Below are positions 937 to 18,352 of a stretch of 64,000 nucleotides of DNA, in pieces (the first letter of the stretch is position 1; every line of letters starts with the position of its first letter). The stretch comes from Elusimicrobiota bacterium. GTDB lineage: Bacteria > Elusimicrobiota > Elusimicrobia > JACQPE01. A program made the position numbers and the translations under genes. The notes beneath the pieces are model-generated. The model searched no databases. It was given only the letters and a program-made list of their open reading frames with translations, and had not been told where the DNA came from. The stretch lies in contig JACQJO010000029.1 in assembly GCA_016205025.1 (NCBI GenBank), positions 97,759-161,758 on the forward strand. Direction: 5' to 3'.

Positions 937-938
937 TA

Positions 939-1907: not shown

Positions 1908-1918
1908 GAAATAACTCC

Positions 1919-2698
1919 CTATTCGCTCCTAGTGCTAGTCATGTCGATCACGGAAACATCTTTCGCAAACTGCCTATCGAATATTTTATCACTGAACTTG
2001 GCATTGGGGCGAGCATCGGAAATCCTCAAGCTTGCCTCATAATTGTTGAAAACCAACTTCAAACTCTCGGGCCGGCCGCTCGCCGCCTCGATGCCAAAAA
2101 GCAAATGATAGGGCTGCGTCGCGCTCTTCTTGGGATCAGCCCTAAGATAAACAACGCCCTGGGCGGCGCCGGAGGCCTTGGCCAGCGAAAAATGGTAACG
2201 ATCTTCAAACTTGCCCAAATCAAAAAATACCGGCAAGTCCATGAAGGCCTGTAAGTGCATCTGGCCGAAATCCTCCCACTTCCTGACCACCACCTGTCGC
2301 AAAGACTCATCAAAAAGATAGGCGGTATTTTTGTCAATCCAAAGCTTGTATTTGACCCGGCCGGAGTAATCCGCGCGCACGCGAAAATTTTTCCGGTCGA
2401 AATAAACCCGGCCGGTCAGCTTCTCTCTCTCGCCCGTGGGCGTCAAAAAAAATTCTTCGGTAAACTTAAACGTGATGCGCTCAATTTTTTCGTCGTAAGC
2501 CTTGACCTTGGCCAGGATGGAAGTCGTAGTGAGTTCAACAGAAAGCGACTGTTCTTTTTCTGCGCTACCTGGATCAGCAAAAGTCGCTAAACTCAACATA
2601 ATGACTAGGCAACAGGCACTAAGGCGATGAGGCGATGAGGCGAAAAGATGTTTTTTACTTAGTGCCTTAGTGCCTTTATGCCTCTGTGCCTTGATCAA
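1919..2698 (-). CDS. LolA-like outer-membrane lipoprotein carrier / lipoprotein-sorting protein
   Basis: 259 aa. It lies directly downstream of ftsK, matching the conserved ftsK-lolA synteny. The TTG start at 2698 overlaps the ftsK TGA stop ('TTGA'). Residues ~3-28 are encoded by the GGCACTAAG hairpin repeat at 2615..2692. An alternative ATG (M34) lies at 2597..2599. The family call is by fold/size/synteny pattern only. Confidence 0.45.
   Translation of the reverse strand: MIKAQRHKGTKALSKKHLFASSPHRLSACCLVIMLSLATFADPGSAEKEQSLSVELTTTSILAKVKAYDEKIERITFKFTEEFFLTPTGEREKLTGRVYFDRKNFRVRADYSGRVKYKLWIDKNTAYLFDESLRQVVVRKWEDFGQMHLQAFMDLPVFFDLGKFEDRYHFSLAKASGAAQGVVYLRADPKKSATQPYHLLFGIEAASGRPESLKLVFNNYEASLRISDARPNAKFSDKIFDRQFAKDVSVIDMTSTRSE
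2615..2692. repeat. Hairpin element built from GGCACTAAG / CTTAGTGCC octamer tandem repeats (copy 1 of 3)
   Basis: Sequence 'aggcactaaggcgatgaggcgatgaggcgaaaagatgttttttacttagtgccttagtgcctttatgcctctgtgcctt'. The arms are inverted copies of an 8-9 nt unit. Related copies lie at 15826..15925 and 18110..18240. Confidence 0.7.
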
Positions 2699-4953
2699 TC
2701 TATCCGCCTTTCTTTTAGATATTCTTCAATTCGATCATATCGAATTTCCCAGCGATTGGTTCCCTCGGGCTTAAAAATATACCCGCCCACTTCAAGACGC
2801 GACAAAATATCAGTGGCGCGCGCCGAGGAGCCGAAATGGGCTTTAAGCAAATCCTGGGACACGCGGCGTCTTTCCTGAATTAATTTTAAGGCCTTAAGAA
2901 AATTTTCCACCTCCTCGCGCGACTGAACCTGGCCTTGCCCGCCGGAATTTTGGTTGTGGATGCCCATCAGAACCGCCGGTTCCGGGTAATCGGGCCCTCC
3001 CTGCTCTTTCCAAAACTGAACCACTTTTTGAATCTCCCCGTCTGAAACGTAAGCTCCCTGAATGCGCGCCGGGCGTTGGGCTCCGGCGGCCAAATACAGC
3101 AAGTCGCCCTCGCCCAACAGATCTTCGGCTCCCTGCGCGTCTAAAATGACGCGGGAATCCACCTTGGAAACCACTTGTAAGGCAATGCGCGCGGGCAGGT
3201 TGGCTTTGATGACCCCGGTGATAACGTCCACGCTGGGGCGCTGGGTCGCCAAAATCAGATGAATGCCCACCGCGCGGGCCATTTGAGCTAAACGCTGGAC
3301 ATTGTGCTCCACTTCTTTGCCCGCCACCAACATTAAATCCGCCAATTCATCAATGATCACCACGACATAAGGTTCCGGCGCAAAGGCCCCGGCATCAACC
3401 GCTCCTGGTGAGCCTTGTCGAACCACCTTGTTGTAGGCCTCGATATTTCTGACATTTTTTTGAGCGAACCGTTCATAGCGGGCTTCCATTAAATCAACCA
3501 TGGCCGCCAATGTTTTGGACGCCTCTTTGAAATCCGTAATGACGGTGACATCGGAGGCGGATTTTCTGGGGTCAAACAGATGCGGAACGCCTTCGTAAAA
3601 AGGGAGCTCCAAGCGCTTGGGATCAATTAATACCAGCTTAAGCTCATCAGGGGTCATCCGGTAGATATAAGAAACGATCATGGCGTGAATCAGCACGCTT
3701 TTGCCGGAGTTGGTCGCTCCCGCGACCAGAAGATGGGGCATGTCGGTTAAATCCGCCAGTATGCCTTCGCCGGAAGCCGAACGCCCAATCGCGAAAACAA
3801 GACGGTCATCGGCCTCTCGCGCCATTGAAGTTTCCAAAACATCCCTTAAGCGCACCAGGGTGGCTTTAGGATTGGGAACCTCAATGCCGATAGCCCCCTT
3901 ACCCGCGATGGGGCCCAGCACGCGCACCGAAGCCACGCGCAAGGCCAACGCTATATCATTGGTTAAATTAACGATCTCGGTAACTTTAACGCCGGGTTTT
4001 GGAACAACATCATACCGGGTCACCACGGGACCCGGCACAATCCCCTCAAGATCCACCAAAACCTCAAAATTAGCCAGAGCGCGCACCAGATCCTGGCCCC
4101 TGCCCTCCAAAACATCGGCCTGGGCCCAAACCTCCGAACCGCCGCTTCCCCGGTTTAATAAATCCAAAGACGGAAGCGTCCATTTGGCTGCGGCGCCCTC
4201 GCGTGGCGCGTCAGGCGCCGGGCGCGCTTGACCACGAATCGGCGGTTCCACGGGTGCGACAGTGATCTTAACCGGCCCGATTCGCTCGGTCTCCTCGGAT
4301 TCGGGCGGCCGCACGCCGTGGCCGTTGCCGTTAGCTGGTTTCTCTATTTTGACTCTCGGCGCGCTTACCGCGCCGCCGGCAGACGCAGACTGCTCGGCAA
4401 CCGCCGCGCGCCGCAAGCGCCATTCGCGGCGCCACGATTTCCAATCCTCCTGGATCAGCCGGATCGTCCGGCCGGTCAACGCTCCCCACGGCACGTCAAA
4501 AGCCATCCAGAGCCAAAAAGCTCCCAACCCCGCCAGCATGGCCCAACTGCCAAAAAAACCGACGCGATAACTCATGGAGCGCGCCAGCCATAAACCCAAA
4601 CCTCCCGCTATGTCGCTTTGATTGAAAGCCGCCAAGCCCCATCCCAAAGCGGCCAGAAAAAATCCGCCCAGCGGCAAAAATAAGGCGTGCGTCGCAAAAG
4701 CGATCTCGCTGGAAAGCGCCTTGCGCGCCGCCCAAGCTCTGGCCGCCATCCAAAACAAAAAAATAGGCGTCCAATAAGCCATCCATCCGAACGCCCCCAA
4801 CATCAAATGATCCACCCATTGACTTAAAAGCCCCATCGAGGCCGGCCAATAAAGGCAGGGGGTTAAAACGAGTCCGCAAAAAAAAGAAAAGAAAAAAAGA
4901 AAAAACCGCCACTTTTTGGAAGACTTAGCGCCCCTTGAGCGTTTCGACATCAA
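2695..4953 (-). CDS. ftsK: DNA translocase FtsK/SpoIIIE
   Basis: 752 aa. N-terminal TM segments, a Pro/Ala-rich linker, a motor domain with Walker A 'GATNSGKSV' and Walker B 'VVVIIDELADLM', and a C-terminal gamma-like wHTH. Confidence 0.9.
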   Translation of the reverse strand: MMSKRSRGAKSSKKWRFFLFFFSFFCGLVLTPCLYWPASMGLLSQWVDHLMLGAFGWMAYWTPIFLFWMAARAWAARKALSSEIAFATHALFLPLGGFFLAALGWGLAAFNQSDIAGGLGLWLARSMSYRVGFFGSWAMLAGLGAFWLWMAFDVPWGALTGRTIRLIQEDWKSWRREWRLRRAAVAEQSASAGGAVSAPRVKIEKPANGNGHGVRPPESEETERIGPVKITVAPVEPPIRGQARPAPDAPREGAAAKWTLPSLDLLNRGSGGSEVWAQADVLEGRGQDLVRALANFEVLVDLEGIVPGPVVTRYDVVPKPGVKVTEIVNLTNDIALALRVASVRVLGPIAGKGAIGIEVPNPKATLVRLRDVLETSMAREADDRLVFAIGRSASGEGILADLTDMPHLLVAGATNSGKSVLIHAMIVSYIYRMTPDELKLVLIDPKRLELPFYEGVPHLFDPRKSASDVTVITDFKEASKTLAAMVDLMEARYERFAQKNVRNIEAYNKVVRQGSPGAVDAGAFAPEPYVVVIIDELADLMLVAGKEVEHNVQRLAQMARAVGIHLILATQRPSVDVITGVIKANLPARIALQVVSKVDSRVILDAQGAEDLLGEGDLLYLAAGAQRPARIQGAYVSDGEIQKVVQFWKEQGGPDYPEPAVLMGIHNQNSGGQGQVQSREEVENFLKALKLIQERRRVSQDLLKAHFGSSARATDILSRLEVGGYIFKPEGTNRWEIRYDRIEEYLKERRID

Positions 4954-5009
4954 GATGATTCTAGCGCATAGAAAAGAAGCGGTGAAGGCTCGGGCTCGCT
5001 TAATTTTCC

Positions 5010-5131
5010 GGCGGAGCCTTAAATCTCTTGAAAAAATATCTCGGAACCCGTTTCTCTTGAAACGGGTGAGAGCTAAGTGGCGGCTGCTCTGCAGCCGACC
5101 ACGGTTTTTTCAAGAGATTTAAGGCGGAGCC
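5010..5131 (-). other. Structured ~120-nt leader element in the wHTH-ftsK intergenic region (long-range 20-bp inverted repeat enclosing two hairpins)
   Basis: 'ccttaaatctcttgaaaaaa' (5017..5036) pairs perfectly with 'ttttttcaagagatttaagg' (5105..5124). Inside lie the hairpins 'cccgtttctcttgaaacggg' and 'ggctgctctgcagcc'. No ORF covers the region. Confidence 0.35.
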
Positions 5132-5173
5132 GTTGCGCGTTATGCCAAAAAAAACGCGTGACGGTCAAAATTT

Positions 5174-5401
5174 TTAGTTTGACGCCCGCGTTAGTTGTTC
5201 TTTTGCCAAGCGAACTTTGTAGCCGTACTCCGAGGCTTCCATTTCCACCTTGCCCTCTTTAAGCATCCAACCCAAAGCCAAAAAAAGTTTGCTCGCCGAA
5301 AGTTCCAGTTTCAGTTTAAGATGCGTCGTTTCGGTTGCCCCTTCGGAGTTCAGGATCAACCGAATTTTTTCAGCAATCTCTTCAATAGATTGGCCCATCA
5401 A
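5174..5401 (-). CDS. Small winged-helix protein (DUF2582-like)
   Basis: 75 aa. The 'FLALGWMLKEGKV' motif matches the DUF2582 wHTH family pattern. Confidence 0.5.
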   Translation of the reverse strand: MMGQSIEEIAEKIRLILNSEGATETTHLKLKLELSASKLFLALGWMLKEGKVEMEASEYGYKVRLAKEQLTRASN

Positions 5402-5517
5402 ACCTCCAAATCCAAAGGCTCAAAAAGTTCAAAAGTTCAAGAGGTTCAAAAGGCTAACCAAGGATTTCTTCCTTATCCTCTTGAACTTTTTTACCCTCTT
5501 AAACCTTTTGAACATTG

Positions 5518-5940
5518 CTACTCTAACAAAAATACCGCGTCCCCTTTTTTAACGTGCTTGCCGTTGACGCCCAAAACTTTAACCACTTTCCCCGCTTTCG
5601 GCGCCCGGATTTCGTTCATCACCTTCATGGCCTCGATGATGCACAAAACATCTCCCGATTTGACCGCCAAACCCTCCTCTACGAAAGGGGCGGCCGACGG
5701 CGAGGACGAGCGGTAAAAAACACCGGATAACGGGGCGTTGACAGGGGTGCCTGAAACGGGGATAAGGGGAACCGGGGATGCGGCGATACTCTCCTGCCCG
5801 CTTCCCCTCTTACCCGCTTCACCCTCTTTCTTCAGGGCTATCTTTAGCTTTTCCTGCGGGCCCAGTTCAAATTCTAAGGCCGAAACGCCAGCCGCTTTCA
5901 TGCGTTGATACAAAAGCTCCAGCCGGGTCACAAGCGACAT
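5518..5940 (-). CDS. accB: Biotin carboxyl carrier protein of acetyl-CoA carboxylase
   Basis: 140 aa. Biotinyl-lysine motif 'EAMKVMNEI' in a C-terminal lipoyl-like domain, preceded by a Pro/Ala-rich linker. Confidence 0.85.
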   Translation of the reverse strand: MSLVTRLELLYQRMKAAGVSALEFELGPQEKLKIALKKEGEAGKRGSGQESIAASPVPLIPVSGTPVNAPLSGVFYRSSSPSAAPFVEEGLAVKSGDVLCIIEAMKVMNEIRAPKAGKVVKVLGVNGKHVKKGDAVFLLE

Positions 5941-5968
5941 GGGGCTAACTTACCAGATTATGAATTTT

Positions 5969-8239
5969 TTATCTGGGCCGGCCCCGGAAACGGTCTCTCG
6001 GTCCGCCGCCCTGCGGCCCCCTTCCACCGGGCCTTGGGGGGCGCAAACCGAAACCTCTCCTGCCCTCGTTCGGGCCGCCGCCGCGGCCGGCATAATCGCC
6101 GCCGCCGCGATTGCCGAAAGACCTGGGGGGAGTGCCCTGGCCCTGCGATTCGCCCTGCGGGGCATCGGCGCGCACCAGCCGGATTTTACCGGAAGGATCA
6201 ATATCCGCGATTCTGACTTCAACGGGATCTCCCTCTTGGAATAGATCGCTCGGATGATTAATGCGCTGCTGGGACATCTGTGAAATATGCAGAAGGCCGT
6301 CGCGTCCGGGCAAAATCTCCACGAACGCGCCAAAGTCGGTTATTGAAACCACTTTGCCCTGGTACACTTTGCCCACCTCGGGCTCCTGGGTCATGCCCTG
6401 GATTTCCTGCTTAGCCTGCTCCACCTGGTCCCAATCCTGCGAATGAATGAAAATGCGGCCGTCGTCTTCCACCTCGATCTCAACGCCGAACGTTTCGCTC
6501 AATCTTCGGATATTCTTGCCGCCCGGGCCGATCAAGGCTCCGATTTTTTCAACCGGGATCGTCACGACCGATATTTTCGGCGCGTAGATGGATAAGCTCG
6601 AACGCGGGAAATTCAGAGCCTGGATCATTTTATCCAGAATCGCCAAGCGCGCGATGCGCGCGGCCTCAACCGCTTCGGTCAAAATTTCAAGCGTAATGCC
6701 CGGAATTTTGACATCCATCTGAAAACCGGTCACGCCCGAACGCGTTCCGGCCAATTTAAAGTCCATGTCGCCCAGATGGTCTTCCAGACCCATGATGTCG
6801 GTTAAGACAAAATGCTTGCCGCCCTCCACGATCAATCCCATCGCGATTCCGGCCACGTGATCCTGCAAAGGCACGCCGGCGTCAAACATAGCCAAAGAAC
6901 CGCCGCAGACGCTGGCCATGGAAGTCGAGCCGTTGGACTCCAGAATGTCGGACACCACGCGCACCGTGTAAGGAAAATCTTCCTCTTTGGGCAAAACGGC
7001 CACGAGCGATCTTCGCGCCAGCGATCCATGCCCGATTTCGCGCCGCCCCGGGCCGCGGTCCGGTCTTACCTCGCCGACCGAGAAGGCCGGGAAATTGTAA
7101 TGAAACAGAAAACGCTCCTTAAAATCCCCCTCCTGCTCTTCCATGGACTGCATATCCTTGGGGGAGCCCAGCGTCACGGTAGCTAACGCCTGGGTCTGGC
7201 CTCTCTGAAACAAAGCCGAGCCGTGAGTCCGCGGAAGAAGGGACGTCCGGCAGGAAATCGGCCTGATTTCATTGATTTTGCGGCCGTCGGCGCGCGCGCC
7301 GTCTCGAACCAGCATGGCGCGCTCCTCGGCGTGAAAAATATCTTCCACGATGCCGCCGATGTGGCCCAAATGATTCGGGAATTTGGCCTCCAGGCGCGCG
7401 GTGAAATCTTTTTTCAAGGCTCTTAATTCGACGTCCAATGCTTTCTTGGGAAGAAACTTTTTAACGATCTCCCTGATTTTGGAAGCCGCCTCGTCTTTGA
7501 TGGCGTTTTTCACGTCTTGATTCCATTGAAATGGCGTGAATGTCATTTTAGGCTTGCCGATCTTTTTGCGGATCTCCTCTTGAATATCGCAAAGCCGGTC
7601 CAAAGGTCCCTTGGCCGCTTTCAGGGCCTCAAGAATGGTTTCTTCGGGCACGATTTTGGCGCCGCCTTCCACCATCACATAAGCGTCCTTGGTCGCGGAA
7701 ATGACCATGTCGATGTCGCTTTCCTGCAGTTCCGCGAATGTCGGATTAAACACGAAGGAACCCCCCACGCGCCCCACGCGAATGCCGGCCACCGGTCCGT
7801 TAAACGGAATGTCGGAGATCACCAAGGCCGCGCTCGAGGCCAACAGCGTCACGACATCGGCGTCGTTTTCGCCGTCAACGGAAAGCACCAAGTTTTGAAC
7901 CATCACTTCGTGGTAAAAACCTTCCGGGAAAAGCGGCCGCAAGGTCCGGTCCGTCAAGCGGGAGGATAAAATTTCGGTTTCCTTGGGGCGGCCTTCCCTG
8001 CGAAAAAATCCGCCGGGAATCTTTCCCGTGGCGTAAGTTCGCTCGCGGTAATCCACCGTCAGGGGAAAAAACGCGGCGTCTTTTTTGGGATCCGGGGACG
8101 CGCAAACAGAGGAAATGACCACGGTTCCACCGATGGTGGCCATCACCGAGCCGTTGGCCTGCTGGGCCACGTGGCCCGTCTGAAAATTAATGGTTTTGCC
8201 GCCGATATCTATGGCGAATTCAATTGGTTCTGACATCAT
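5969..8239 (-). CDS. pnp: Polyribonucleotide nucleotidyltransferase (PNPase) with a C-terminal Arg/Gly-rich tail
   Basis: 756 aa. Two RNase PH domains, KH, and S1 ('GKVVSITDFGAFVEI'). The last ~70 aa are an RGG-rich low-complexity extension ('GRGGGPNEGRRGFGLRPPRPGGRGPQGGGPRDRFRGRPR'). Confidence 0.95.
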   Translation of the reverse strand: MMSEPIEFAIDIGGKTINFQTGHVAQQANGSVMATIGGTVVISSVCASPDPKKDAAFFPLTVDYRERTYATGKIPGGFFRREGRPKETEILSSRLTDRTLRPLFPEGFYHEVMVQNLVLSVDGENDADVVTLLASSAALVISDIPFNGPVAGIRVGRVGGSFVFNPTFAELQESDIDMVISATKDAYVMVEGGAKIVPEETILEALKAAKGPLDRLCDIQEEIRKKIGKPKMTFTPFQWNQDVKNAIKDEAASKIREIVKKFLPKKALDVELRALKKDFTARLEAKFPNHLGHIGGIVEDIFHAEERAMLVRDGARADGRKINEIRPISCRTSLLPRTHGSALFQRGQTQALATVTLGSPKDMQSMEEQEGDFKERFLFHYNFPAFSVGEVRPDRGPGRREIGHGSLARRSLVAVLPKEEDFPYTVRVVSDILESNGSTSMASVCGGSLAMFDAGVPLQDHVAGIAMGLIVEGGKHFVLTDIMGLEDHLGDMDFKLAGTRSGVTGFQMDVKIPGITLEILTEAVEAARIARLAILDKMIQALNFPRSSLSIYAPKISVVTIPVEKIGALIGPGGKNIRRLSETFGVEIEVEDDGRIFIHSQDWDQVEQAKQEIQGMTQEPEVGKVYQGKVVSITDFGAFVEILPGRDGLLHISQMSQQRINHPSDLFQEGDPVEVRIADIDPSGKIRLVRADAPQGESQGQGTPPRSFGNRGGGDYAGRGGGPNEGRRGFGLRPPRPGGRGPQGGGPRDRFRGRPR

Positions 8240-8334
8240 TTACTCCTTGTCCGATTATTCATTACGTTTATTCTAATTACAGGAAGAGTTCAGGTTGGTT
8301 ATTCAAGCCCAATCCCGTCAAAAAAGACCGGGAT

Positions 8335-8598
8335 TCAGTTTAAATCAAGATCCGAACGCAGCTTTTTTGACGCTGCACGGTCGTTTCTTTCCAAATAAGA
8401 AAGCAACGCGCGCCTTCTGCCCACCAGTTTTAAAAGTCCCCTGCGGGAAGAATGGTCGTATTTTTCGGATTTCAGATGCCCATTAATGCTGTTGATTCTA
8501 TTGGAAAGCATGGCGATCTGAACAACGGTGCCGCCCGTGTCCTTGGGGTTGGCCGCGTACCGTTTAACAATTTCTGACTTCTCTTCTTTTGTAATCAC
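8335..8598 (-). CDS. rpsO: 30S ribosomal protein S15
   Basis: 87 aa '[43 protein letters not shown]...'. It sits immediately upstream of pnp (classic rpsO-pnp arrangement). Confidence 0.95.
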
Positions 8599-8625
8599 GC
8601 TAGAATTATAACATGAAAAATTGAA

Positions 8626-9585
8626 CTAGCCACCTCGCGCTATTTTTACGTCTTTCATAATTTGAGCGCGCAAGTCCTCCAAAGAACCGAACTTTTTCTC
8701 ACCGCGAATCCGGCTTAAAAGTTCCAGCGTCAATGTCCGGCCGTAGAGGTTGCCCTTAAAATCAAGAACATGGGCCTCAACAACGGGCAAAAGGGGTGAG
8801 GGGTGAGGGGTGAGGGGTGAGGTAAAAAAACGATTTTCTTTCTGACCCCTGACCCCTGACCCCTGACCCCTGACTGTTGGCCTAAATCCGATATTAACCA
8901 CGGCCAGGCGGTCAAGCTCCGGTGCGCGAGCCCGGAACACTCCTAAGGGCAAAATTTTGGCGGGGTCAATGGACAAATTGGCGGTCGCGATCCCCAACAG
9001 CCTGCGGCCGATGCCTTCCCCCCGGACTACCCGGCCTCCAATGCGGTATGGCCGGCCCAAGAGGCGATTAGCCCGCGAAACATCGCCCTCGGCCAAAAGG
9101 CCCCGAATTCTGGTTGAAGAAACGGCCAATCCGCGCCCGGTTTTCAGCCGCACCATGCGCCAGCGAAGCCCAAGAGGCCGAAGAAACCGCTGGAAACTGG
9201 TGCTGTCGCACAAGCGGTCCTTGCCGAGGGCGAAATTCTCGCCGAAAACCAAGGTGTCTGCGCGCCACAAGCCGCAAGCGTAGCGCTTCAAAAATTCCCC
9301 GGCCGAAAGATTCAATAGAGAGCGCTTAATGCCCAGCACCGCTACCTTACGAATTCCAAACTCCTCGCGCAAAATCCTGATCCTCTCTTCAACCGTGGTT
9401 AGAAGCCGCACGATCCTGGTATTGCCATACAAAAAAACACGCGGCGAGTAGGGAAAAATGGCAACCATGGGTTCCAAATTCTTTTGCCGGGCCACGCGCA
9501 AAAGACCCTCCAGCGCCTTGCGATGCCCAAGGTGCAAACCATCAAAAGTGCCGATGGTAAGCGCTCTTTTCCTTGGCTTGGTCAT
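8626..9585 (-). CDS. ribF: Bifunctional riboflavin kinase / FMN adenylyltransferase
   Basis: 319 aa. N-terminal 'TIGTFDGLHLGHR' nucleotidyltransferase motif. C-terminal riboflavin-kinase motifs 'NIGFRPT...EAHVLDF..NLYG'. An in-frame repeat insertion lies at 8796..8876. Confidence 0.9.
   Translation of the reverse strand: MTKPRKRALTIGTFDGLHLGHRKALEGLLRVARQKNLEPMVAIFPYSPRVFLYGNTRIVRLLTTVEERIRILREEFGIRKVAVLGIKRSLLNLSAGEFLKRYACGLWRADTLVFGENFALGKDRLCDSTSFQRFLRPLGLRWRMVRLKTGRGLAVSSTRIRGLLAEGDVSRANRLLGRPYRIGGRVVRGEGIGRRLLGIATANLSIDPAKILPLGVFRARAPELDRLAVVNIGFRPTVRGQGSGVRGQKENRFFTSPLTPHPSPLLPVVEAHVLDFKGNLYGRTLTLELLSRIRGEKKFGSLEDLRAQIMKDVKIARGG
8796..8876. repeat. (GGGGTGA)n ... (TGACCCC)n hairpin repeat embedded in frame in ribF
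   Basis: 'ggggtgaggggtgaggggtgagg taaaaaaacgattttctttc tgacccctgacccctgacccctgacccctga'. It encodes 'GQGSGVRGQKENRFFTSPLTPHPSPLLP' inside the riboflavin-kinase domain. The ribF reading frame is kept. Confidence 0.75.
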
Positions 9586-10043
9586 TGGTGCGCCAATCCA
9601 AATTTTCTTTGCGCCGAGATGCGGCTGATCACGTCGCCAAACTCCGGATTCTTGTTAAGGAGATACTCAAAATCCTGGGAAAGAAGAGTGAATATCTTGG
9701 ATTCTTTGCCGGCAACGGCGCTGGCCAGACGAGGAGCTTTTTCCCAAAGCGCCATTTCGCCAAAAATTTGGCCCGGACCAAGGCAGGCGATCTCTCTGGA
9801 AAAAAATAGGAACGCTTTTTTTCGAATAACAATTTCTCCTTCATAAACTACGAATAGGGCGTCGCCACCGTCCCCTTCTTTGAATAGGGTGTGGCCGCGG
9901 CCGCATCGAAACAGCCCGAACGAGGGAATAACTTTTTCTAATTGCCCGGTCGTCATGCCGCCAAAAAAATGGATTTTCGCGAGGGTGGACAAAAGCCACT
10001 TCTGGTCGGAAGGTCCGATATTTAATTGTTCCAGCTTAGGCAT
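9582..10043 (-). CDS. Cyclic-nucleotide-binding domain protein (stand-alone cNMP-binding domain)
   Basis: 153 aa with the cNMP-binding signature 'FGEMALW...A.A'. The stop overlaps the ribF start. Confidence 0.65.
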   Translation of the reverse strand: MPKLEQLNIGPSDQKWLLSTLAKIHFFGGMTTGQLEKVIPSFGLFRCGRGHTLFKEGDGGDALFVVYEGEIVIRKKAFLFFSREIACLGPGQIFGEMALWEKAPRLASAVAGKESKIFTLLSQDFEYLLNKNPEFGDVISRISAQRKFGLAHQ

Positions 10044-10746: not shown

Positions 10747-10756
10747 TACCTACTAC

Positions 10757-11767
10757 CTACTTTCTTTTTTTAAGCAGGTTGCCCATTCTCTCCACTAAAG
10801 TTTTTTCAATTTTATCCATCGTCATGTCTGCGATTTCGCAGCCGGCCGCGTTTTTATGGCCGCCGCCGCCGAAACTTTGGGCCAATACCGAAACATCAAC
10901 GCGGCCCCGCGAACGCAAAGAAACGGAAACAACATTTTTCCCGCGAAAAGGCTCCTCTTTCATAAAAAACGCGGCCTCCACCTCCTTGGGGGCCAGCCCG
11001 TAATTGACGATATCCTCGGTTTGCGTGGCGTGAAAATCATATTTGGCGAAATCCCCCCGCGACAAGGAAAGCGCCGTGACGCGGCCGCCCAAATGAAACC
11101 GCATGCTGCTAAGCGCGGTTGCCAAGAGCCTTAAATGAGCCACCGTCTTGATGGTGAATAAATGCTCCATGATTCTGGTGTGAGGAATTCCGGTTTCCAA
11201 AAGTTCCGCCGCCACGCGGTGGGTCGCAGGGCTGGTCAGGGAATATTGGAAGCGCCCCGTGTCCGACACGATCCCCGCGTAAAGCCAGGTGGCTTCCTCC
11301 TTGGTCGGAACAAAACCGAACTCCTTGTAAAGCATATAAACCTGCTCCGCGTTCGACGAAGCGTGGGGATTAATCCAATTGACATGAGCGAATCCTTTGC
11401 CGGTGATGTGGTGATCAATATTCAAGGTTAACCGGAACTCCTCGAAAGCGGCGATGCCGCCGGCGCGTTCCGGGTTGGCGCACTCCAAATAAATAGCGCA
11501 ATCCAAGTCTTTAAGATCGGACTTTTGCGCCGGGGCCACAACCGTATCCCAGCGGGGAAGAAATTGCAACTGAGCCGGAATGGGGCTGGCGTTGGCTAAA
11601 ACGATTCTTCGCCCGCTTTTGACTCTGCGCAAAAGACCCGATAACGCCAGCGAGGAGCCCAGCGTGTCGGCGTCGGGTTTAACGTGGCCCACGATGGCAA
11701 AACTCTTGGCCTCCCGCAAAGCCTTCGTTAAATTAGGCGGAACTCTGCCGTTAGAGAAAGGCGTCAT
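10757..11767 (-). CDS. nrnA: DHH-family phosphoesterase (NrnA-like bifunctional oligoribonuclease / pAp phosphatase)
   Basis: 336 aa. DHH motifs 'GHVKPDADTLGS' and 'IDHHITG', and the DHHA1 motif 'GGGGHKNAAG'. Confidence 0.8.
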   Translation of the reverse strand: MTPFSNGRVPPNLTKALREAKSFAIVGHVKPDADTLGSSLALSGLLRRVKSGRRIVLANASPIPAQLQFLPRWDTVVAPAQKSDLKDLDCAIYLECANPERAGGIAAFEEFRLTLNIDHHITGKGFAHVNWINPHASSNAEQVYMLYKEFGFVPTKEEATWLYAGIVSDTGRFQYSLTSPATHRVAAELLETGIPHTRIMEHLFTIKTVAHLRLLATALSSMRFHLGGRVTALSLSRGDFAKYDFHATQTEDIVNYGLAPKEVEAAFFMKEEPFRGKNVVSVSLRSRGRVDVSVLAQSFGGGGHKNAAGCEIADMTMDKIEKTLVERMGNLLKKRK

Positions 11768-11773
11768 GGATAA

Positions 11774-11862
11774 ATGCGGGAAAGGCGGTAGATGCGGGAA
11801 AGGCGGTAAAAAAAATGAAAGGAAACTCCTTGCCCTTCACCGCTTTCTCCGCCTTTACCGCT
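11774..11862. repeat. ~90-nt hairpin element (GCGGGAAAGGCGG ... CCGCCTTTCCCGC), copy 1, in the nrnA-rbfA gap
   Basis: 'gcgggaaaggcggtagatgcgggaaaggcggtaaaaaaaatgaaaggaaactccttgcccttcaccgctttctccgcctttaccgc'. It is nearly identical to copy 2 at 12296..12390. Confidence 0.75.
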
Positions 11863-11872
11863 TTTTCCTTTA

Positions 11873-12286
11873 TCATTTTTTATGGCGTTTCCCCTTGGAA
11901 CTCTTCACCACAGCGCTGCCTTCGTTGGCATGCAGGCTATTGAGTATCTGCAGTACCCTATCCGCCGATTCCATGGAGTTGTCATAAATAAAACTCAAGC
12001 GCGGCAACCGCTTGATCGTTAACCGTTTTTTGAGCTCCCGCGTGATTTCAGGCTCCAAATCTTCCAGGGCTTGTTGGGCCAAATCAGCGTTTTGCGGGTC
12101 GGATGAAACAGCGGTCCAGGAATATCTGACGATCGCTTTTTCTAAATTTCTGGCCACCTCAACGCGCGTAATGGTGAGCAAAATGGAGCCGGCTGTCTCA
12201 AAAATTTTCTCGCGATGATCTTCCAAAATTCTGGAAATCTCATTGCGCATCAAGGCCTCAACGCGAGAAATTCGGTCGGGAAACAT
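11873..12286 (-). CDS. rbfA: Ribosome-binding factor A
   Basis: 137 aa 'ISRVEALMRNEISRILE...ILLTITRVEVARNLEKAIVRYS'. It sits in the conserved infB-rbfA-truB position. Confidence 0.8.
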   Translation of the reverse strand: MFPDRISRVEALMRNEISRILEDHREKIFETAGSILLTITRVEVARNLEKAIVRYSWTAVSSDPQNADLAQQALEDLEPEITRELKKRLTIKRLPRLSFIYDNSMESADRVLQILNSLHANEGSAVVKSSKGKRHKK

Positions 12287-12295
12287 TTTAAAAAA

Positions 12296-12390
12296 ATGCG
12301 GGAAAGGCGGTAGATGCGGGAAAGGCGGTAAAAAAAATGAAAGGAAATTCCTTGCCCTTCCCCGCCTTCACCGCCTTCCCCGCCTTTCCG
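12296..12390. repeat. ~90-nt hairpin element copy 2, in the infB-rbfA gap (direct repeat of 11774..11862)
   Basis: 'gcgggaaaggcggtagatgcgggaaaggcggtaaaaaaaatgaaaggaaattccttgcccttccccgccttcaccgccttccccgcctttccg'. Confidence 0.75.
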
Positions 12391-12393
12391 TTA

Positions 12394-14547
12394 TCATTTC
12401 TGCGTCAATTTCTTCAACTCTTTAACCGTCTCAAAACATTCGATGCGGTCGCCTTTTCTGGGTTCGTTGTAGCCCGAAACCACAATGCCGCACTCGTATC
12501 CATGAGTGACCTCGGTGACGTCTTCCTTCACCCTTTTTAAGCTGGTCACCTTGCCGTCAAGAAACTTGGCGTCGCCGCGCCAAACCCGGGCTTGAGTTCC
12601 CCTGTTGATTTTGCCCTGGGTCACGAAACAGCCCGCCACCGGCCCGACTCCGGAGACTCGAAAAGCGGCCCGCACATCCGCCGCGCCCAAAACGTTTTCC
12701 TTGATAATCGGGGCCAAAAGCCCTTCCAAAGCGGCCCGCACGTCCCCCACCAATTCATAAATAACGGAATAAACCCGGCATTCAACCTTCTCTTTTTGCG
12801 CCTCCTCTTGGGCGCGGACGTCCATCGGCACGTGAAAACCTAAAATGACCGCTTCCGAAGCCGCGGCCAACAGAACGTCCGAAAGGCTGACGGGGCCCAC
12901 GCCCGCGTGCAGAACCTTGATCGCCACCTCCTCATGGTGAAGCTTGGACAACTCCCCCACAATGGCTTCCAAAGAGCCCTGCATATCGGTTCGCAGTATG
13001 ATCTTAAATTCCTTCATCAGGCCCTGCGAAATTTTTTCATGAATATCTTCAAGCATCAAATGTTTCGTCGACTTATTGCCGTGCACCAACTGAAATTCAG
13101 CCGCCCGGGTCGTGGCGTGCTCCTTAGCCTTGCGCTCGTTGTCCACCGCGATCAATCGATCACCCGCCTGCGGCACATCGGACAAGCCCATCAGAAGAGC
13201 CGGCGTGGCCGGACCGGCCTGCTGCATCTTGGCATTACGATCGTCAATCAGGGCGCGAACTTTGCCCCAAGTAATGCCGCAAACAAAGGGATCCCCGATG
13301 CGCAGTGTTCCGTCTTGAATCAAAATGGAGGCCACGTTGCCTCGCTTAGAGTCTTTTCTGGCCTCCAGGACGGCGCCGACCGCCGGACGCTTGGGATCGG
13401 CCTTTAACTCCATCAACTCCGCTTCCAGCGCGATCATCTCCAATAGTTTATCCAGGTTAATTTTTTTCTTGGCCGAAACCTCCACCATCACCGTTTTGCC
13501 GCCCCAGTCTTCGGCCATAAGGTCATGATTGGCCAATTCTTGTTTGATTCTATTGACATTGGCTTCAGGCTTGTCAATTTTATTGATGGCCACAACAATC
13601 TTGACGCCGCCCGCTTTGGCGTGGTCAATGGCTTCCACGGTCTGGGGCATCACCTTGTCATCCGCCGCCACCACCAAGACAACCATATCCGTCACCTTGG
13701 CTCCGCGGGCGCGCATCGCGGTAAAAGCCTCATGACCCGGGGTGTCCAGAAATACAATTTCCCCCCTGGACGTTTTAACCTTATAAGCGCCGATATGCTG
13801 CGTGATGCCGCCGGCTTCCTGCTCCGCCACGCGGGTTTCGCGGATTGCGTCCAACAGGGTGGTTTTGCCGTGATCCACGTGTCCCATGATGGTCACGATG
13901 GGGGCGCGCGCGGACAAATCTTTCGGGTCAGCCGCAGGCGCCGCCCGCAGCAAAGCTTCTTCCTGCTCAAAAACTTGGGGAACTTCGGCCTCAAAGCCGA
14001 ATTCATTAGCCACCAAAGTAGCGGTTTCCGGCTCCAGCTTTTGATTGATGGTGGCCCAAACGCCCAAGGCCATCAGCTTTTTGATAATTTCGGGCACGCC
14101 CACGCCCAAAAGACCGGCCAAATCCTTGACCGTTGTTCGAGGGGTAAGCGTGATTTTTCTTTTTACCGGCGCGGGCGGCTCTTTGGTCTCAACCACCGCG
14201 GTGGCCGCCGCCTTTTCTTTGGCCTCTGCGCCGGGAGACGGCGGCGCGATTTCCTCTTTTTGATCCGGCGCCTTGACCGGTGCCTGGGACCGGTGCGGCG
14301 CGAGCGGCGCGCTCACGACGGGGCTTTCTGCCTGGCGGTCTAAAACATCGCTCTCGATCTTTACAGTTTTTGAAATCTTGGCCGCTTTGCTTTCCGATTT
14401 GCGCGGCGATTTCTTATGAACCGCCTCAATCAGCTTCGCCGGTCGGCCGGCAGGCAAGGCCTTTTTCGCCTTTTTCGCTTCAGTTTTTATTTTAGCGGGC
14501 TTAGCCGCCTTTTCTTTGGTTGTTTTAGTCGTCTTTTTTTGCGCCAC
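12394..14547 (-). CDS. infB: Translation initiation factor IF-2
   Basis: G domain '[12 protein letters not shown]...DTPGHEAF...NKIDK', a K/E/A/P-rich N-terminal region, and C-terminal beta-barrels. The maximal ORF extends to 14775 but would overlap nusA by ~230 nt. The likely start is the GTG at 14545..14547, immediately after the nusA stop (14549..14551). Confidence 0.85.
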
Positions 14548-14548
14548 G

Positions 14549-15847
14549 TTATGCGGTCTGTCCTTCTTCCGAAATTTTTTCTTTCTCCTCAACGGCCGCT
14601 TTAATTTTTTTCGCCTTAACTTTCTTTTTCCCTTCGGAAGCCGCCGCCGTTTCTGCTTGCGCCGCCTCTTCTTGTTTGGATTTCTCCTGTTCTCCCCCAG
14701 CATCCAGCATCGAGCATCCAGCATCCTCTTCTTTTTTCTCCACCCCTCCAGCATCCAGCATCGAGCATCCAGCATCTTCTTTCTTCACCGCTTCCACCGT
14801 GATGTTCCATCCGGTCAACTCCGAGGTCAGCTTCAAATTCAAACCATCTTTGCCGATCGCTCCCGCCAGCTGGTCCTGCTCAACAAAAACGCGCGCCGTC
14901 TTTTTTTCGGTATCCTCGACCTCCACCTTAGACACCTTGGCCGGCGCCAAGGCCGCCGCGATCATGCCTTCGGTGTTGTCTCCCGACAAAACAAGGTCAA
15001 TCTTCTCTCCATGCAGCTCGTTGATCACCGGGCGGATGCGCGTTCCCTTGATGCCCACGCAGGCGCCGACAGGATCAACCCTGGGATCGTTGGATTTGAT
15101 CAGCACCTTGCTTCGAAACGCCGGCTCGCGAACCACTTTCAAGATCTCGACCGTCCCGTCATGAACTTCCGGAACCTCAAGGCGCAAAAGGCCCTGCACG
15201 AACCCGGGAGCGCTTCGGGAAAGATAAACCTGCGGCCCCCTAAGATCCAGCTCCACCGAATGCACCAGGGCTTTCAAAGGCTGGCCGATGGAAAACCTTT
15301 CGCCCGGAATTTGTTCCTCTTTTTTTAAAATGGCCTCGATTTTGCCCAAACTGACATAAACAGTTTTGTCATGGCCGACGCGATAAACGGAACCCGTAAT
15401 CACCAGGTTCTCCTTCTTTTTGAAATCCTTGAAAAGATTTTCTTTTTCAACCTCGCGTAGTTTCTGCAGGATCACCTGCTTGGCGGTTTGGGCCGCGATT
15501 CTGGAAAACTCCATGGTGTCAACCGCCACCGGCACGTCTTCATCAACCTTCACCGCCGGATTGATTTTTTTAGCCGCCTCAAGAGAAATTTCGGCCAAAG
15601 GATCGCTGACCTGTTCCACCGCTTTTTTCAAAATAGCGGCTTTGGTTTCTCCGGTCTCGCCATCCATCGTAGCTTGAACCGGAATCTCGCGGCCCATGTG
15701 CTTGACCAGCGCGGAAGCCACCGCCCCTTCGATCAAGCGTAAAATCTCCTGGCGGGGAATGCCCTTGTCCCGCTCGATGGTCTCTAAAAGCAAAACAAAC
15801 TCGGTTTTGGAAGTCATAAATAGTGAGGCACTGAGGCACTGAGGCAC
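14549..15847 (-). CDS. nusA: Transcription termination/antitermination factor NusA
   Basis: NusA N-terminal, S1 and KH domains, with an acidic/Lys-rich C-terminal tail. The probable true start is 'MTSKTEF' at 15817. The ORF extension to 15847 runs into the hairpin repeat. The C-terminus contains a ~45-bp direct repeat (14697..14787) encoding 'EDAGCSMLDAGG' twice. Confidence 0.9.
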   Translation of the reverse strand: MPQCLSASLFMTSKTEFVLLLETIERDKGIPRQEILRLIEGAVASALVKHMGREIPVQATMDGETGETKAAILKKAVEQVSDPLAEISLEAAKKINPAVKVDEDVPVAVDTMEFSRIAAQTAKQVILQKLREVEKENLFKDFKKKENLVITGSVYRVGHDKTVYVSLGKIEAILKKEEQIPGERFSIGQPLKALVHSVELDLRGPQVYLSRSAPGFVQGLLRLEVPEVHDGTVEILKVVREPAFRSKVLIKSNDPRVDPVGACVGIKGTRIRPVINELHGEKIDLVLSGDNTEGMIAAALAPAKVSKVEVEDTEKKTARVFVEQDQLAGAIGKDGLNLKLTSELTGWNITVEAVKKEDAGCSMLDAGGVEKKEEDAGCSMLDAGGEQEKSKQEEAAQAETAAASEGKKKVKAKKIKAAVEEKEKISEEGQTA

Positions 15848-15925
15848 TGAGGCACTGAGTGAAAAAGAACAATTCTTCTTAGTGCCTTAGTGCCTAAGTG
15901 CCTATTTGCCTCTCTCTGTGCCTTG
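15826..15925. repeat. GGCACTGAG/AGTGCCTTA octamer hairpin element (copy 2 of 3), in the rimP-nusA intergenic region
   Basis: 'gaggcactgaggcactgaggcactgaggcactgagtgaaaaagaacaattcttcttagtgccttagtgcctaagtgcctatttgcctctctctgtgcctt'. Confidence 0.75.
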
Positions 15926-15926
15926 C

Positions 15927-16472
15927 TCATACATTTATTTCCGGATCCAAATTCGCTTTGGCGATTTCACTTAACGCCAACGACCACCTTCTTTGATTGT
16001 CGTCGTCAACAAGTAAAACAAACCCCTCGGCAACAGCCTCCAGCGTGCCCCTAAACACCCTTTGGTTTGTGCCCGGAAACGGATTCTTAAGCTCGATTTT
16101 CGCCCTCTCCCCCAAAAAGCGATGGTAATCCTTCTCCTTGCGCAGAACCCGCCTTAATCCCGGCGATGAAACTTCCAAACTGTAATGGCGTTCGATCAGG
16201 CCCGATTGGTCCAGGTGGGCTTCCACCCTGCGGCTGACCTCCTCACAATCCGAAAGAGTGATCGGCTTGGTGTCATGATCCAGCACCAACTGCAAGGTCC
16301 AGCCGTTGGGTCCCGGCCGCCATTCCAGTTCAAGCAATTCAAACCCCTCCCTTTCAATCAAAGGCCGCAACGCAGTCTCCAATTTATCCCGAAGTTCCAT
16401 CATAACCAAAAAAGATGAAAAAAGCGAAAAAGACCGGGCCTTTTTCGCCTCTTCCTTAATATATTGTACCAA
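15927..16472 (-). CDS. rimP: Ribosome maturation factor RimP
   Basis: 181 aa in the ORF. It lies upstream of nusA (conserved rimP-nusA-infB order). The domain pattern is 'MELRDKLETALRPLIEREGFELLELEW...'. The true start is probably the internal 'MMELRDK'. Confidence 0.8.
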   Translation of the reverse strand: MVQYIKEEAKKARSFSLFSSFLVMMELRDKLETALRPLIEREGFELLELEWRPGPNGWTLQLVLDHDTKPITLSDCEEVSRRVEAHLDQSGLIERHYSLEVSSPGLRRVLRKEKDYHRFLGERAKIELKNPFPGTNQRVFRGTLEAVAEGFVLLVDDDNQRRWSLALSEIAKANLDPEINV

Positions 16473-16482
16473 ACTGCTCTTT

Positions 16483-18312
16483 TTATTGCGCCGACAGGCG
16501 CGCGCGATCCATCGGGTGGGGCAGAGTATTTTGAAGAATCATCTCTTCGGCAAGTTTTAAAATCTTATTTTGGGCCTGCAAAATCCGTTCAACGGGCGGC
16601 CGCCCCACGGTGACGAGGTACTCCTGCAAAATCTGGCTTGTTTTCTTGGGCAGGGAGTGAAAAATTTTATCCTTTAAGCCGGGGTCCGACAGGCCGTCTG
16701 AAATCGCTATGGCCAATTCATGAATCTGCACGCGCGAGAGAAGCATGTTTAACTCCTGCTCCGACCAATAGGTTATATCCCCAAAAAGCAAAACCTTGCC
16801 GCGCACGATCCGGTAAAGATTGGCGTCTTGGCTTTCGATCGTTTTAAGCATTTTCTCGCGCAACAGCAGATCAACGGCGTTTAACGTGTTGACAATTTCC
16901 TGCGCGCCGCCGACGACCCCGGCGATGCGGTGCTCCAGTTCCTCTTTCAGGCGCTCCATTAATTCCGTTTCCACCATTTGAGGCTCAGCCATCGCCTTGA
17001 TGACCTCTCCCAAGCGCTCGGATGGGAACTGCTCCAAGAACGCCTTTTTAGTGGCGACCGGAAGGCGGGCTACCACCAGGGCGATGTGGTTCGGATTTTC
17101 CTGCCCGATCAAGTGATAAAGGTCGGCCACGCGCGCCGGCGCGATCTTAATCTCCGCTTCGCCCGGCGCTTCGCTTTTTTGAGCGGCCATTTCGATTAAT
17201 TTTTCATCTCCGGCGCCGCCCGGCAACTCGTCTTCCCCCTCCTTGTCCTTGGCCATCCTTCCCTCAAGGTAAGCCCGCAGTTTATCCGGAAACTCAAATT
17301 TCACCTCGATGCTTTTTTGCCTGGCGGCTGAAAAAGCCACCACCCATTGCGCCAAAACTCCCACCAAGGAACGCCAAGTAATCAAAGCCAAAAACGTGGT
17401 GGCAACCAAGCCGATGATCAGAATAATCCCGATCGTGCCCCACTGAAGCACGGTGCCCAAAACCTTGGAATCCTTCAATAACTCCATGAAAGGATTGGGC
17501 ATGCTGAATCGCGTCACGACCAAACGGTCCCCCCGAGCCGCGTCCAGCGTTAAAAATGACCCGATCAAGGTCTGCACCTTCGCCTCGGCGTCCGCCGGCA
17601 AAGAATAATCCAGGGCGACCTTGACGAAAACGGATTTAACCTCCAGGCCCACCGCGTAAAGAAAATTGGGGTCCGAGAAAGGGTAACGCCCATCCGCCGC
17701 CTTCCTGGAACCCGGCGGCGCGCCGCCGGTTGGAACCGAAACCCCGGTCCCCACGGCCGAAAACCCGGGCAGGATAAAGGTGTCGGTTCCGGAGGCCTGG
17801 GGATCGCCGCTGTCCGCTATGCCCGGAAAAAGCCATTTATAACTGGAAGGATTTTCAGCTCCGGCATCGTCTGCCGGCGCGTCCTTGGCTGTCCGGCCTA
17901 ACTGGCCGGACAAATAAGCCGAAAGGCTGTTTTGCAATTCTTCCTTGAGTTTTAACGAAAACCCGACGTCCACATGCACGAAAACCTCGGCGTTTCCGGT
18001 GCCGAACGTTTTATCCAGGTGCTCCTGAATTTTATTCTTAAGATCACGCGACAGGTAGCTGGAAGCCTGAACAATCGCGCCTCCGGGCTCCAGGGGAAAG
18101 GCGAATGGAGGAAAGGCACTAAGGCACAAAGGCACTAAGGCACTAAGAATAACAGCTCTTCTTAGCTTAGCGCCTAAGTGCCTTTTTGCCCCAGTGCCCA
18201 AGTGCCTAAGTGCCTCTATGCCTATCTTGCCCTTTATCACTTTTTCCCCTTTTAGATTAATCCCAAAACCCCCCCCGCGCAACCCCCAACACCAAAAAGT
18301 AGGGACAGACAC
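16483..18312 (-). CDS. Membrane protein with a C-terminal FliG-like (FliG middle/C-terminal, MgtE-N-like) domain, possibly a FliF/FliG-like fusion
   Basis: 609 aa. The C-terminal ~250 aa align by eye with FliG. One TM helix 'IGIILIIGLVATTFLALITW' lies mid-protein. The N-terminal aa ~24-67 are encoded by hairpin repeat 18110..18240, and the start codon is uncertain. Confidence 0.45.
   Translation of the reverse strand: MSVPTFWCWGLRGGGFGINLKGEKVIKGKIGIEALRHLGTGAKRHLGAKLRRAVILSALVPLCLSAFPPFAFPLEPGGAIVQASSYLSRDLKNKIQEHLDKTFGTGNAEVFVHVDVGFSLKLKEELQNSLSAYLSGQLGRTAKDAPADDAGAENPSSYKWLFPGIADSGDPQASGTDTFILPGFSAVGTGVSVPTGGAPPGSRKAADGRYPFSDPNFLYAVGLEVKSVFVKVALDYSLPADAEAKVQTLIGSFLTLDAARGDRLVVTRFSMPNPFMELLKDSKVLGTVLQWGTIGIILIIGLVATTFLALITWRSLVGVLAQWVVAFSAARQKSIEVKFEFPDKLRAYLEGRMAKDKEGEDELPGGAGDEKLIEMAAQKSEAPGEAEIKIAPARVADLYHLIGQENPNHIALVVARLPVATKKAFLEQFPSERLGEVIKAMAEPQMVETELMERLKEELEHRIAGVVGGAQEIVNTLNAVDLLLREKMLKTIESQDANLYRIVRGKVLLFGDITYWSEQELNMLLSRVQIHELAIAISDGLSDPGLKDKIFHSLPKKTSQILQEYLVTVGRPPVERILQAQNKILKLAEEMILQNTLPHPMDRARLSAQ
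18110..18240. repeat. GGCACTAAG/CTTAGTGCC octamer hairpin element (copy 3 of 3)
   Basis: 'ggaaaggcactaaggcacaaaggcactaaggcactaagaataacagctcttcttagcttagcgcctaagtgcctttttgccccagtgcccaagtgcctaagtgcctctatgcct'. In the FliG-like ORF frame it encodes 'RRAVILSALVPLCLSAFPPFAFP' (signal-peptide-like). Confidence 0.75.
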
Positions 18313-18352
18313 TGCTTTTTTTAAAAAAAGCAGTGTCTGTCCCTACTTTTTG
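18294..18352. repeat. REP-like perfect palindrome, family 1 (core TAGGGACAGACAC), intergenic copy
   Basis: 'aaaaagtagggacagacactgctttttttaaaaaaagcagtgtctgtccctactttttgg'. It shares the GGGACAGACAC...GTGTCTGTCCC arms with the copies flanking the transposase at 18988..19040 and 19716..19769. Confidence 0.85.

Follow-up and report, generated by a model that had tools for sequence, protein, structure and literature searches.

A 64,000-nt stretch of an Elusimicrobiota genome (GenBank assembly GCA_016205025.1, contig JACQJO010000029.1, positions 97,759 to 161,758; hereafter referred to as the window) carries three long hairpins, H1, H2, and H3, built from inverted tandem arrays of the octamer GGCACTAA. 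The question raised by this locus is whether these structures are RNA signals that belong to the neighbouring genes or elements of a different origin. The explanation that accounts best for the data, to which we assign a probability of roughly 0.55, is that H1–H3 are copies, lacking an open reading frame (ORF), of a small insertional, foldback-like hairpin element, the layout of which is related to that of rRNA intervening sequences (IVSs). This element consists of a purine-rich array of 7–9-nt units, a short A/T loop, and an imperfectly complementary, pyrimidine-rich array. Near-identical copies are present at unrelated sites, and the same architecture brackets genes of the family PF05635, both in the window and in other phyla. 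The elements persist only at tolerant sites, namely between the cistrons of an operon that was once compact, in a surface loop of a protein and, probably, in coding regions at the 5' end.

Structure of the three hairpins

All three elements were confirmed at the positions originally reported for them (2615–2692, 15826–15925, and 18110–18240). Their extended limits are as follows:

H1: 2606–2694, unstranded; GGCACTAA-type hairpin with a purine-rich arm (2615–2650), a loop, and a pyrimidine-rich arm (2658–2692)
H2: 15818–15926, unstranded; GGCACTGA/CTTAGTGC hairpin that occupies the entire 109-nt rimP/nusA spacer
H3: 18105–18240, unstranded; GGCACTAA hairpin downstream of the repetitive extragenic palindromic (REP) sequence 18291–18354

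These hairpins represent a real family of structured repeats and not random simple sequence. The two-unit probe GGCACTRAGGCACT, with up to two mismatches allowed, gave 16 matches in the window, every one of them within H1, H2, or H3, versus 0.67 expected from dinucleotide shuffles; none of 100 shuffles attained 16. Arrays with a period of 8 nt were detected by Tandem Repeats Finder at 2622–2643/2658–2692, 15824–15859/15878–15903, and 18113–18147/18172–18215. H1 is not an artefact of a single assembly, since it is reproduced in independent Logan contigs, which are 100% identical to positions 299–8818, including H1 (contig L125, run SRR12113384), and 299–3289 (contig L126, SRR12113383) of the window.

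Folding yielded a long imperfect hairpin on either strand; the minimum free energies (MFE) lay between -30 and -65 kcal/mol, and comparison with shuffled sequences gave z-scores between -3.8 and -8.7. The individual MFE values were -39.1 (plus strand) and -30.0 (minus strand) for H1, -59.8 (plus) and -52.5 (minus) for H2, and -64.7 (minus) for H3.

Several details of the original prediction had to be revised. The octamer period stands (8 nt, GGCACTAA), but the pattern in which the unit had been written contains nine letters and is wrong. From the first arm described as (GGCACT[A/G]AG)2–4, H1 deviates in having one GGCACTAAG followed by the variants GGCGATGAG (twice) and GGCGAAAAG. A conserved loop of ~15–20 nt was not recovered: the loops measure 10–18 nt, are A-rich and then T-rich, pair partly with themselves, and share no motif. 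The so-called tail, a non-array segment common to H1 and H2, is similar in these two but looser in H3, and represents a stretch over which the second arm continues in decayed form.

Comparison with related genomes

The window contains at least 10 inverted-array structures, among which H1–H3 represent one flavour and seven others display different 7–9-nt units. Three of these seven are located between genes:

H5: 11772–11868, unstranded; hairpin of the 9-mer AAAGGCGGN that fills the 105-nt rbfA/DHH spacer
H6: 12294–12389, unstranded; near-twin of H5 (AAAGGCGGN) that fills the 107-nt infB/rbfA spacer
H7: 5420–5509, unstranded; TCAAAAGT-type hairpin between the biotin-carrier gene (bccp) and a DUF2582 gene, the latter called from Logan contig L125; MFE -37.6 kcal/mol on the minus strand

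H5 and H6 flank rbfA and are almost identical over their 3' ~60 nt.

The operon rimP-nusA-infB-rbfA-DHH-truB-ribF-rpsO-pnp-bccp-ftsK is present in three relatives, namely locus L120, a sister of the window with 70–75% amino acid identity over four proteins, and the outgroups L122 and L123. The spacer lengths (nt, negative values denoting overlap) are:

rimP/nusA: window 109, L120 0, L122 130, L123 46
infB/rbfA: window 107, L120 13, L122 153, L123 10
rbfA/DHH: window 105, L120 -26, L122 67, L123 -17
bccp/next gene: window hairpin-bearing, L120 1, L122 31, L123 1

At these junctions, the hairpin makes up essentially the whole spacer in the window. No hairpin was found in the rimP/nusA spacers of L120 and L123 (0 and 46 nt), and no inverted-array pairs were detected in ~20 kb of each of these two loci. 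L122 possesses inverted-array pairs of its own, with sequences that differ from those in the window. The most economical reading of these comparisons is that the hairpins of the window were gained after the split from L120, and that the gains in L122 were independent.

The hairpins of L122 are also informative with regard to copying. Five in-frame hairpins of the GATGATGA/TCATCATC family, each encoding variants of GDDEMMRKEGFASPSSSHHH, are located in truB and ribF of this relative (positions 15050–16940). Two of them, residing in different genes, are identical over ~64 nt, the loop included, and no flanking duplication is present beside them. An apparent array pair in truB of L122 with a 184-nt loop (15116–15150/15335–15362) was rejected as an element, being in reality two neighbouring short hairpins.

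Two other differences in gene spacing and content were recorded. The DUF2582/ftsK spacer measures ~220–370 nt in the window, depending on the ftsK start chosen, versus 43 nt (L120) and 20 nt (L123) in the relatives; in the window, it holds a non-array inverted repeat (5009–5132) with 28-nt arms 68 nt apart. A gene for a protein with a cyclic-nucleotide-binding domain (9582–10043, minus strand) is located between truB and ribF and does not occur at that position in the three relatives.

Hairpins within coding sequences

Two inverted-array structures of the window lie inside conserved genes of the same operon:

H4: 8792–8874, unstranded; (AGGGGTG)4.4/(CTGACCC)4.7, inserted in frame into the RibF riboflavin-kinase domain
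truB arrays: 10225–10480, unstranded; inverted 9-mer arrays with arms at 10225–10261 and 10446–10480, both inside truB

RibF of the window aligns with solved RibF structures (T. maritima) on either side of the segment encoded by H4. The motifs NIG and VEAHVL are separated by 44 codons in the window, 24 in L120, 21 in L123, and 44 in L122, and the 44 codons of L122 are due to a hairpin at this loop that differs entirely from H4. H4 is, therefore, an in-frame insert in a surface loop of RibF. The length of RibF in L122, 428 amino acids (aa), is due to in-frame hairpins. The truB arrays, which are translated as KVRKVSKVNKV and PCSPFSLCSPSFS, enclose 184 nt of conserved truB coding sequence.

The location of all three octamer hairpins at gene boundaries, as originally stated, holds strictly only for H2, which extends from the rimP stop to the nusA ATG; counted from this ATG (15817), the match to the NusA_N domain begins at residue 6. 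H1 is located between the ftsK stop (2695–2697) and ATG 2599. LolA homologues have 37–43 aa, including the signal peptide, ahead of the conserved SVELTT motif. The corresponding segment in the window comprises 20 aa if counted from ATG 2599 and 53 aa if counted from TTG 2698, which overlaps the ftsK stop as TTGA. Since ATG 2599 leaves too short an N-terminus and the frame from TTG 2698 is open through H1, this hairpin is very probably translated as part of the first 33 lolA codons. In that case, its purine arm would probably encode a basic segment and its pyrimidine arm a part of the hydrophobic core. Similarly, GTG 18240 is preceded by AAAAGGGGAAAAA, a purine-rich, ribosome-binding-like site, and the sense frame contains no stop through H3; this hairpin is probably coding, within the first ~45 codons of a FliG-like ORF. 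In-frame insertion into conserved genes, as known for Rickettsia palindromic elements (RPEs), was thus found for H4 in RibF, the five truB and ribF hairpins of L122, and, probably, H1 in lolA.

Additionally, unpaired arrays of 7–8-nt units occur within coding sequences, with the frame open, at 14697–14789, 32722–32752, 39179–39207, 57217–57247, and 63831–63878. Examples are the twofold repeat DAGCSMLDAGG in the extended C-terminal tail of NusA, a tail that is missing in the relatives (NusA of 360–375 aa), and part of the class-V aminotransferase encoded where the window ends.

Inverted arrays around PF05635 genes

Two further array pairs of the window enclose a gene:

Cassette 1: 21257–21721, plus strand; inverted 9-mer arrays 21257–21307 and 21671–21721 around an intact PF05635/TIGR02436 gene (21312–21668)
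Cassette 2: 61686–62185, plus strand; inverted AGTAGGT heptamer arrays 61710–61744 and 62150–62185 around a frameshifted PF05635-like gene (61768–62144)

The arms are 51 nt long and 76% complementary in cassette 1, the gene of which matches PF05635 with E = 1.2e-33, and 35 nt long and 94% complementary in cassette 2, where both ORF halves gave phmmer matches. PF05635/TIGR02436 carries the label 'four helix bundle / 23S rRNA intervening sequence protein', and these genes are weakly similar to Avd, a nucleic-acid-binding protein of diversity-generating retroelements. Assignment of the gene at 21312–21668 to such a retroelement was rejected, as no reverse-transcriptase gene was seen adjoining it.

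Nine of the ten sampled PF05635 genes are located between inverted arrays (two of two in the window and seven of eight elsewhere). The tenth, at locus L115, was left out of the flanked count. The array-bracketed loci outside the window are L006, L070, L026, L061, L128 (between sdhA and sdhB), L134, and L143. In these seven and in both cassettes of the window, inverted flanks surround a loop with a PF05635 ORF, as in the stem of an rRNA IVS. The units of the flanking arrays are locus-specific, and nine of the ten genes are co-oriented with their neighbours. Among other long loops, one holds a GxxExxY gene and another a 117-aa ORF without a known identity; those of Gastranaerophilales contain nested small repeats.

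Arrays break short-read assemblies. Logan contigs from the same population as the window terminate inside arrays at positions 8818 (AGGGGTG), 59173 (AGTAGAT), and 61737 (AGTAGGT), and many PF05635 homologues likewise reside on contigs of only ~0.5–2.5 kb.

Common rules and distribution

The survey of this class spanned loci of over 100 genomes, ~1 Mb in total, and revealed 67 inverted-array pairs. The purine-rich arm came first in 49 pairs and the reverse order was seen in 6; after exclusion of arrays carrying the search pattern, these numbers were 30 and 4. At least one of the six exceptions is the L122 pair 15116–15150/15335–15362, the arms of which originate from two neighbouring hairpins. 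All pairs in the window are purine-first, and this layout is identical whichever strand is read. Arm lengths in the window are 28–39 nt at periods 7, 8, and 9 alike (~30–37 nt for the purine-rich array), and arrays of more than 40 nt are rare across the whole sample. As to the polarity, a pyrimidine-rich arm transcribed first may expose a Rho-loading site; alternatively, the translated layout may be of importance, giving a charged and then a hydrophobic segment.

In the species-representative genome set, at least 119 stretches contained the exact 17-mer GGCACTAAGGCACTAAG. Among the matches listed, up to nine loci came from a single Cyanobacteriota metagenome-assembled genome, several loci each from assemblies of Gastranaerophilales, Melainabacteria, and Omnitrophota, and others from Bacteroidota, Planctomycetota, and further groups. 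An inverted partner was located within 700 nt of 46 of 130 sites. The 17-mer was also present in 21 viral contigs, in some of which it forms canonical intergenic hairpins. Arrays of GGCACTAAG recur across Cyanobacteriota, Melainabacteria, Bacteroidota, Planctomycetota, Omnitrophota, and viral contigs. In the viral contigs L152, L156, and L158–L162, direct GGCACTAAG arrays lie beside other direct arrays, GCCTTTCATT and AGGGCAGAGTT. Judged by sequence layout, this arrangement resembles an iteron-rich origin region and would represent a different use of the octamer.

Comparison with known elements

The Foldback (FB) transposons of eukaryotes possess inverted terminal arms of short tandem repeats and exist in forms with and without a central coding segment. 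The array elements share both features. However, FB arms range from hundreds of bp to kb, and these transposons duplicate their target sites and need a transposase; the array elements showed none of this.

RNase III excises the IVSs of 23S rRNA, the ends of which are not rejoined, and no function is known for the PF05635 domain (PMC11270868). Like the array elements, they form a long stem from flanking inverted sequences, have a loop that is either short or contains a PF05635 gene, and display a patchy distribution across phyla. In contrast to IVSs at helix 25 or 45 of 23S rRNA, all array elements occur in protein-gene contexts, that is, mRNA operons, spacers, and coding sequences, and no conserved 16S or 23S sequence motif was detected in the window or in any fetched locus. 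Array elements also differ in that their arms are tandem 7–9-nt units and that excision by RNase III, putative here, would not be harmless for the apparently translated copies.

REP sequences and REP doublets forming hairpins (REPINs), which are mobilised by REP-associated tyrosine transposases (RAYTs), are likewise short, hairpin-forming intergenic repeats that come in families, make no target-site duplication, and can affect mRNA stability. The suggestion that H1–H3 are REP-like was near the mark. However, REPs are imperfect palindromes of 20–40 nt with a conserved tetranucleotide head of the GTAG/CGTC type (PMC3733652), whereas the array hairpins measure 80–135 nt, are built of locus-specific tandem units, and have neither a REP sequence nor a common head. 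Both RAYT-like genes of the window are accompanied by palindromes other than the arrays: true REPs of the (G/A)TAGGGACAGACAC type at 18986–19041 and 19714–19771 flank the gene at 19003–19710, and palindromes of a second family, AAATGGTACCAGGTACCAAATGG (59270–59331, 59681–59738, and 60017–60072), accompany that at 60019–60789. The further TAGGGACAGACAC copy at 18291–18354 has T-runs on both sides and the look of a bidirectional terminator.

Perfect TAGGGACAGACAC palindromes with 27–30-nt arms were also recorded at 28620–28674, 29925–29985, 37320–37380, and 48546–48606, inside a single uninterrupted ORF of 12,539 codons (21725–59344, minus strand). By eye, the product of this giant ORF appears to consist of recurring modules that are Kelch-like, LamG-like, and C-type-lectin-like, and its C-terminus resembles a secretion tail. 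The palindromes are read in frame as GKIGTDTNC.TIGVCPYFSC and, being missing from paralogous modules within this protein, look like in-frame REP insertions.

[quoted passage not shown] The arms of the array elements are 75–94% complementary, as expected of terminal inverted repeats. However, they are tandem arrays with sequences that differ by locus, and in the window neither a parent insertion sequence with the same ends nor a transposase gene with array ends was seen. Target-site duplications were absent at the two L122 copies, H1, H2, H5, and H6, few copies being comparable. RPEs are hairpin repeats located in frame within unrelated housekeeping genes and tolerated in the protein (PMC10969869), but they are ~150 bp long, have no short tandem units, and are unrelated in sequence and host phylum.

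Arrays of units on the 7-nt scale are also known as short tandemly repeated repetitive (STRR) sequences or TAACTGA heptamer repeats, which are intergenic, occur in Cyanobacteria and Bacteroidetes, have no known function, and are suspected of horizontal spread (PMC4679880). These were described as direct repeats, with a single inverted set noted in a Beggiatoaceae genome, whereas the array hairpins are defined by inverted pairing, purine-first polarity, and enclosed genes. Relation to arrays of the CRISPR (clustered regularly interspaced short palindromic repeats) kind was rejected, since the units are too short and spacers are lacking. In the literature, we found no description of inverted short-tandem-array hairpins.

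Origin of the elements and alternative explanations

According to the insertional interpretation, the ORF-less hairpins would be empty or derived forms of PF05635 cassettes that spread by copy-and-paste without target-site duplication, and slippage within each arm would subsequently homogenise the units. Once transcribed, an imperfect stem of ~30–35 bp would be a likely substrate for RNase III, as are rRNA IVSs (PMC11270868) and the Correia elements of Neisseria (PMC10969869). Cleavage would then divide the operon mRNA into segments or make it more stable, incidentally and not as a designed signal.

A number of observations weigh against this interpretation. Mobility is inferred only from the copies and from presence/absence among relatives, because neither a transposase nor a target-site duplication nor a conserved end came to light. 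The cleavage of array stems by RNase III is a prediction. Simple copy-and-paste alone gives no account of unit sequences that vary by locus. The unit GTCAGGG in RibF resembles the native flank GTGCGGG of L120, a hint that amplification was local. In truB, the arrays stand on either side of native coding sequence and the protein length is unchanged, which does not resemble a cassette insertion. Finally, cassette 1 is antisense to its neighbours.

Some of these observations would be explained by growth in place, in which slippage amplifies a short local sequence and template switching copies it in inverted orientation, as in a quasipalindrome, so that the hairpins would be local products and not mobile. 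This is the main rival, although we consider it rather unlikely as an explanation on its own. It accounts for the locus-specific units, the separate homogenisation of the arms in H2 and H4, the resemblance of the RibF unit to the L120 sequence at that site, and the replacement of native truB segments by arrays of similar length. It does not account for near-identical whole hairpins, including the loop, in different genes (L122; H5 and H6), for the presence of the same octamer at three sites of the window and in many phyla, or for arrays that systematically bracket PF05635 and GxxExxY genes. Both processes, insertion and growth in place, may well act together.

Another view is that the arrays serve as multi-site platforms for a repeat-recognising protein, either an oligomeric PF05635 four-helix-bundle protein or a translational regulator, that controls adjacent genes. 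The presence of ~4–5 units per arm, the narrow range of arm lengths, the strict purine-first polarity, and the association with PF05635 genes, which are weakly Avd-like, would fit such a role, and regulator binding has been proposed for the TAACTGA heptamer arrays (PMC4679880). However, units differ wholly between loci in one genome, so that a single specificity cannot cover them, hairpins are missing at orthologous sites of relatives, and some copies are translated. We regard a binding platform as unlikely.

A dedicated cis-regulatory RNA of the transcription unit, that is, processing sites, attenuators, or 3'-exonuclease barriers selected at junctions, is closest to the original prediction, which saw in the loop and tail a specific signal fixed to gene junctions. 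The stability of the hairpins and the exact location of H2, H5, and H6 between cistrons of the rimP-nusA-infB-rbfA operon speak for this option, and the same operon of E. coli has RNase III sites. However, the hairpins are not conserved in L120 or L123, their loops share no motif, identical architecture is found inside coding sequences, and H1 and H3 are probably translated. No array hairpin of the window matched an Rfam family at the gathering threshold; the sub-threshold matches were to eukaryotic miRNA-precursor models, which are generic hairpins, and one trpB motif. For arrays in 19 other loci, Rfam returned nothing; elsewhere in these loci it gave only tRNA and Flavo-1, one match to the latter adjoining an array without covering it.

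The pairing within the stems likewise displays no bias towards the sense strand. Differences between the arms are transitions, which give G-U pairs on one strand and A-C mismatches on the other. Folding favoured the antisense strand for H1, H2, and H4 and the sense strand for H3, H6, and H7. In H2, all four units of one arm (GGCACTGA ×4) have G where the other arm implies A (complement of GGCACTAA), and the arms of H4 read GGGGTGA versus GGGGTCA. The arms were separately homogenised, and this points to slippage within each arm and not to compensatory evolution between arms. The absence of these hairpins from relatives, the lack of an Rfam family, of terminator features, and of a strand preference argue against a dedicated RNA signal, and a junction-specific one is very unlikely.

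That the stem-loops, some of which lie close to gene ends, are intrinsic (Rho-independent) terminators is extremely improbable: their loops exceed 8 nt, no T-run follows the stem, H2, H5, and H6 lie within an operon of essential genes, and the 50 terminator-like sites called in positions 1–20000 include REP palindromes but none of the array hairpins.

The insertional interpretation can be carried one step further. It is possible, if doubtful in its entirety, that the hairpins made of inverted arrays and the PF05635 and GxxExxY genes bracketed by arrays constitute one undescribed, cross-phylum class of prokaryotic foldback-type cassettes, which is called an intervening sequence when it resides in rRNA. 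Such cassettes would have a fixed design, with the purine arm first, arms of ~30–37 nt, and variable units. Their promoter-less passenger gene would be carried along in host transcripts and freed by RNase III, and the Avd-like PF05635 protein would serve the propagation or maintenance of the element. The ORF-less hairpins of the window would then be non-autonomous derivatives.

Biological implications

These results warn against taking array hairpins for operon-specific regulatory RNAs. In the organism examined, a repeat element reshapes the compact essential operon rimP-nusA-infB-rbfA-truB-ribF and adds a peptide to RibF and, probably, to LolA. The purine-first rule and the narrow arm length provide simple criteria usable for genome-wide annotation. 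PF05635 genes in our sample are nearly always located in the loop of an inverted-array stem, and this places the PF05635 'four helix bundle' family, which is very common, in a specific setting that can be tested, as it does the question of how rRNA intervening sequences arise.

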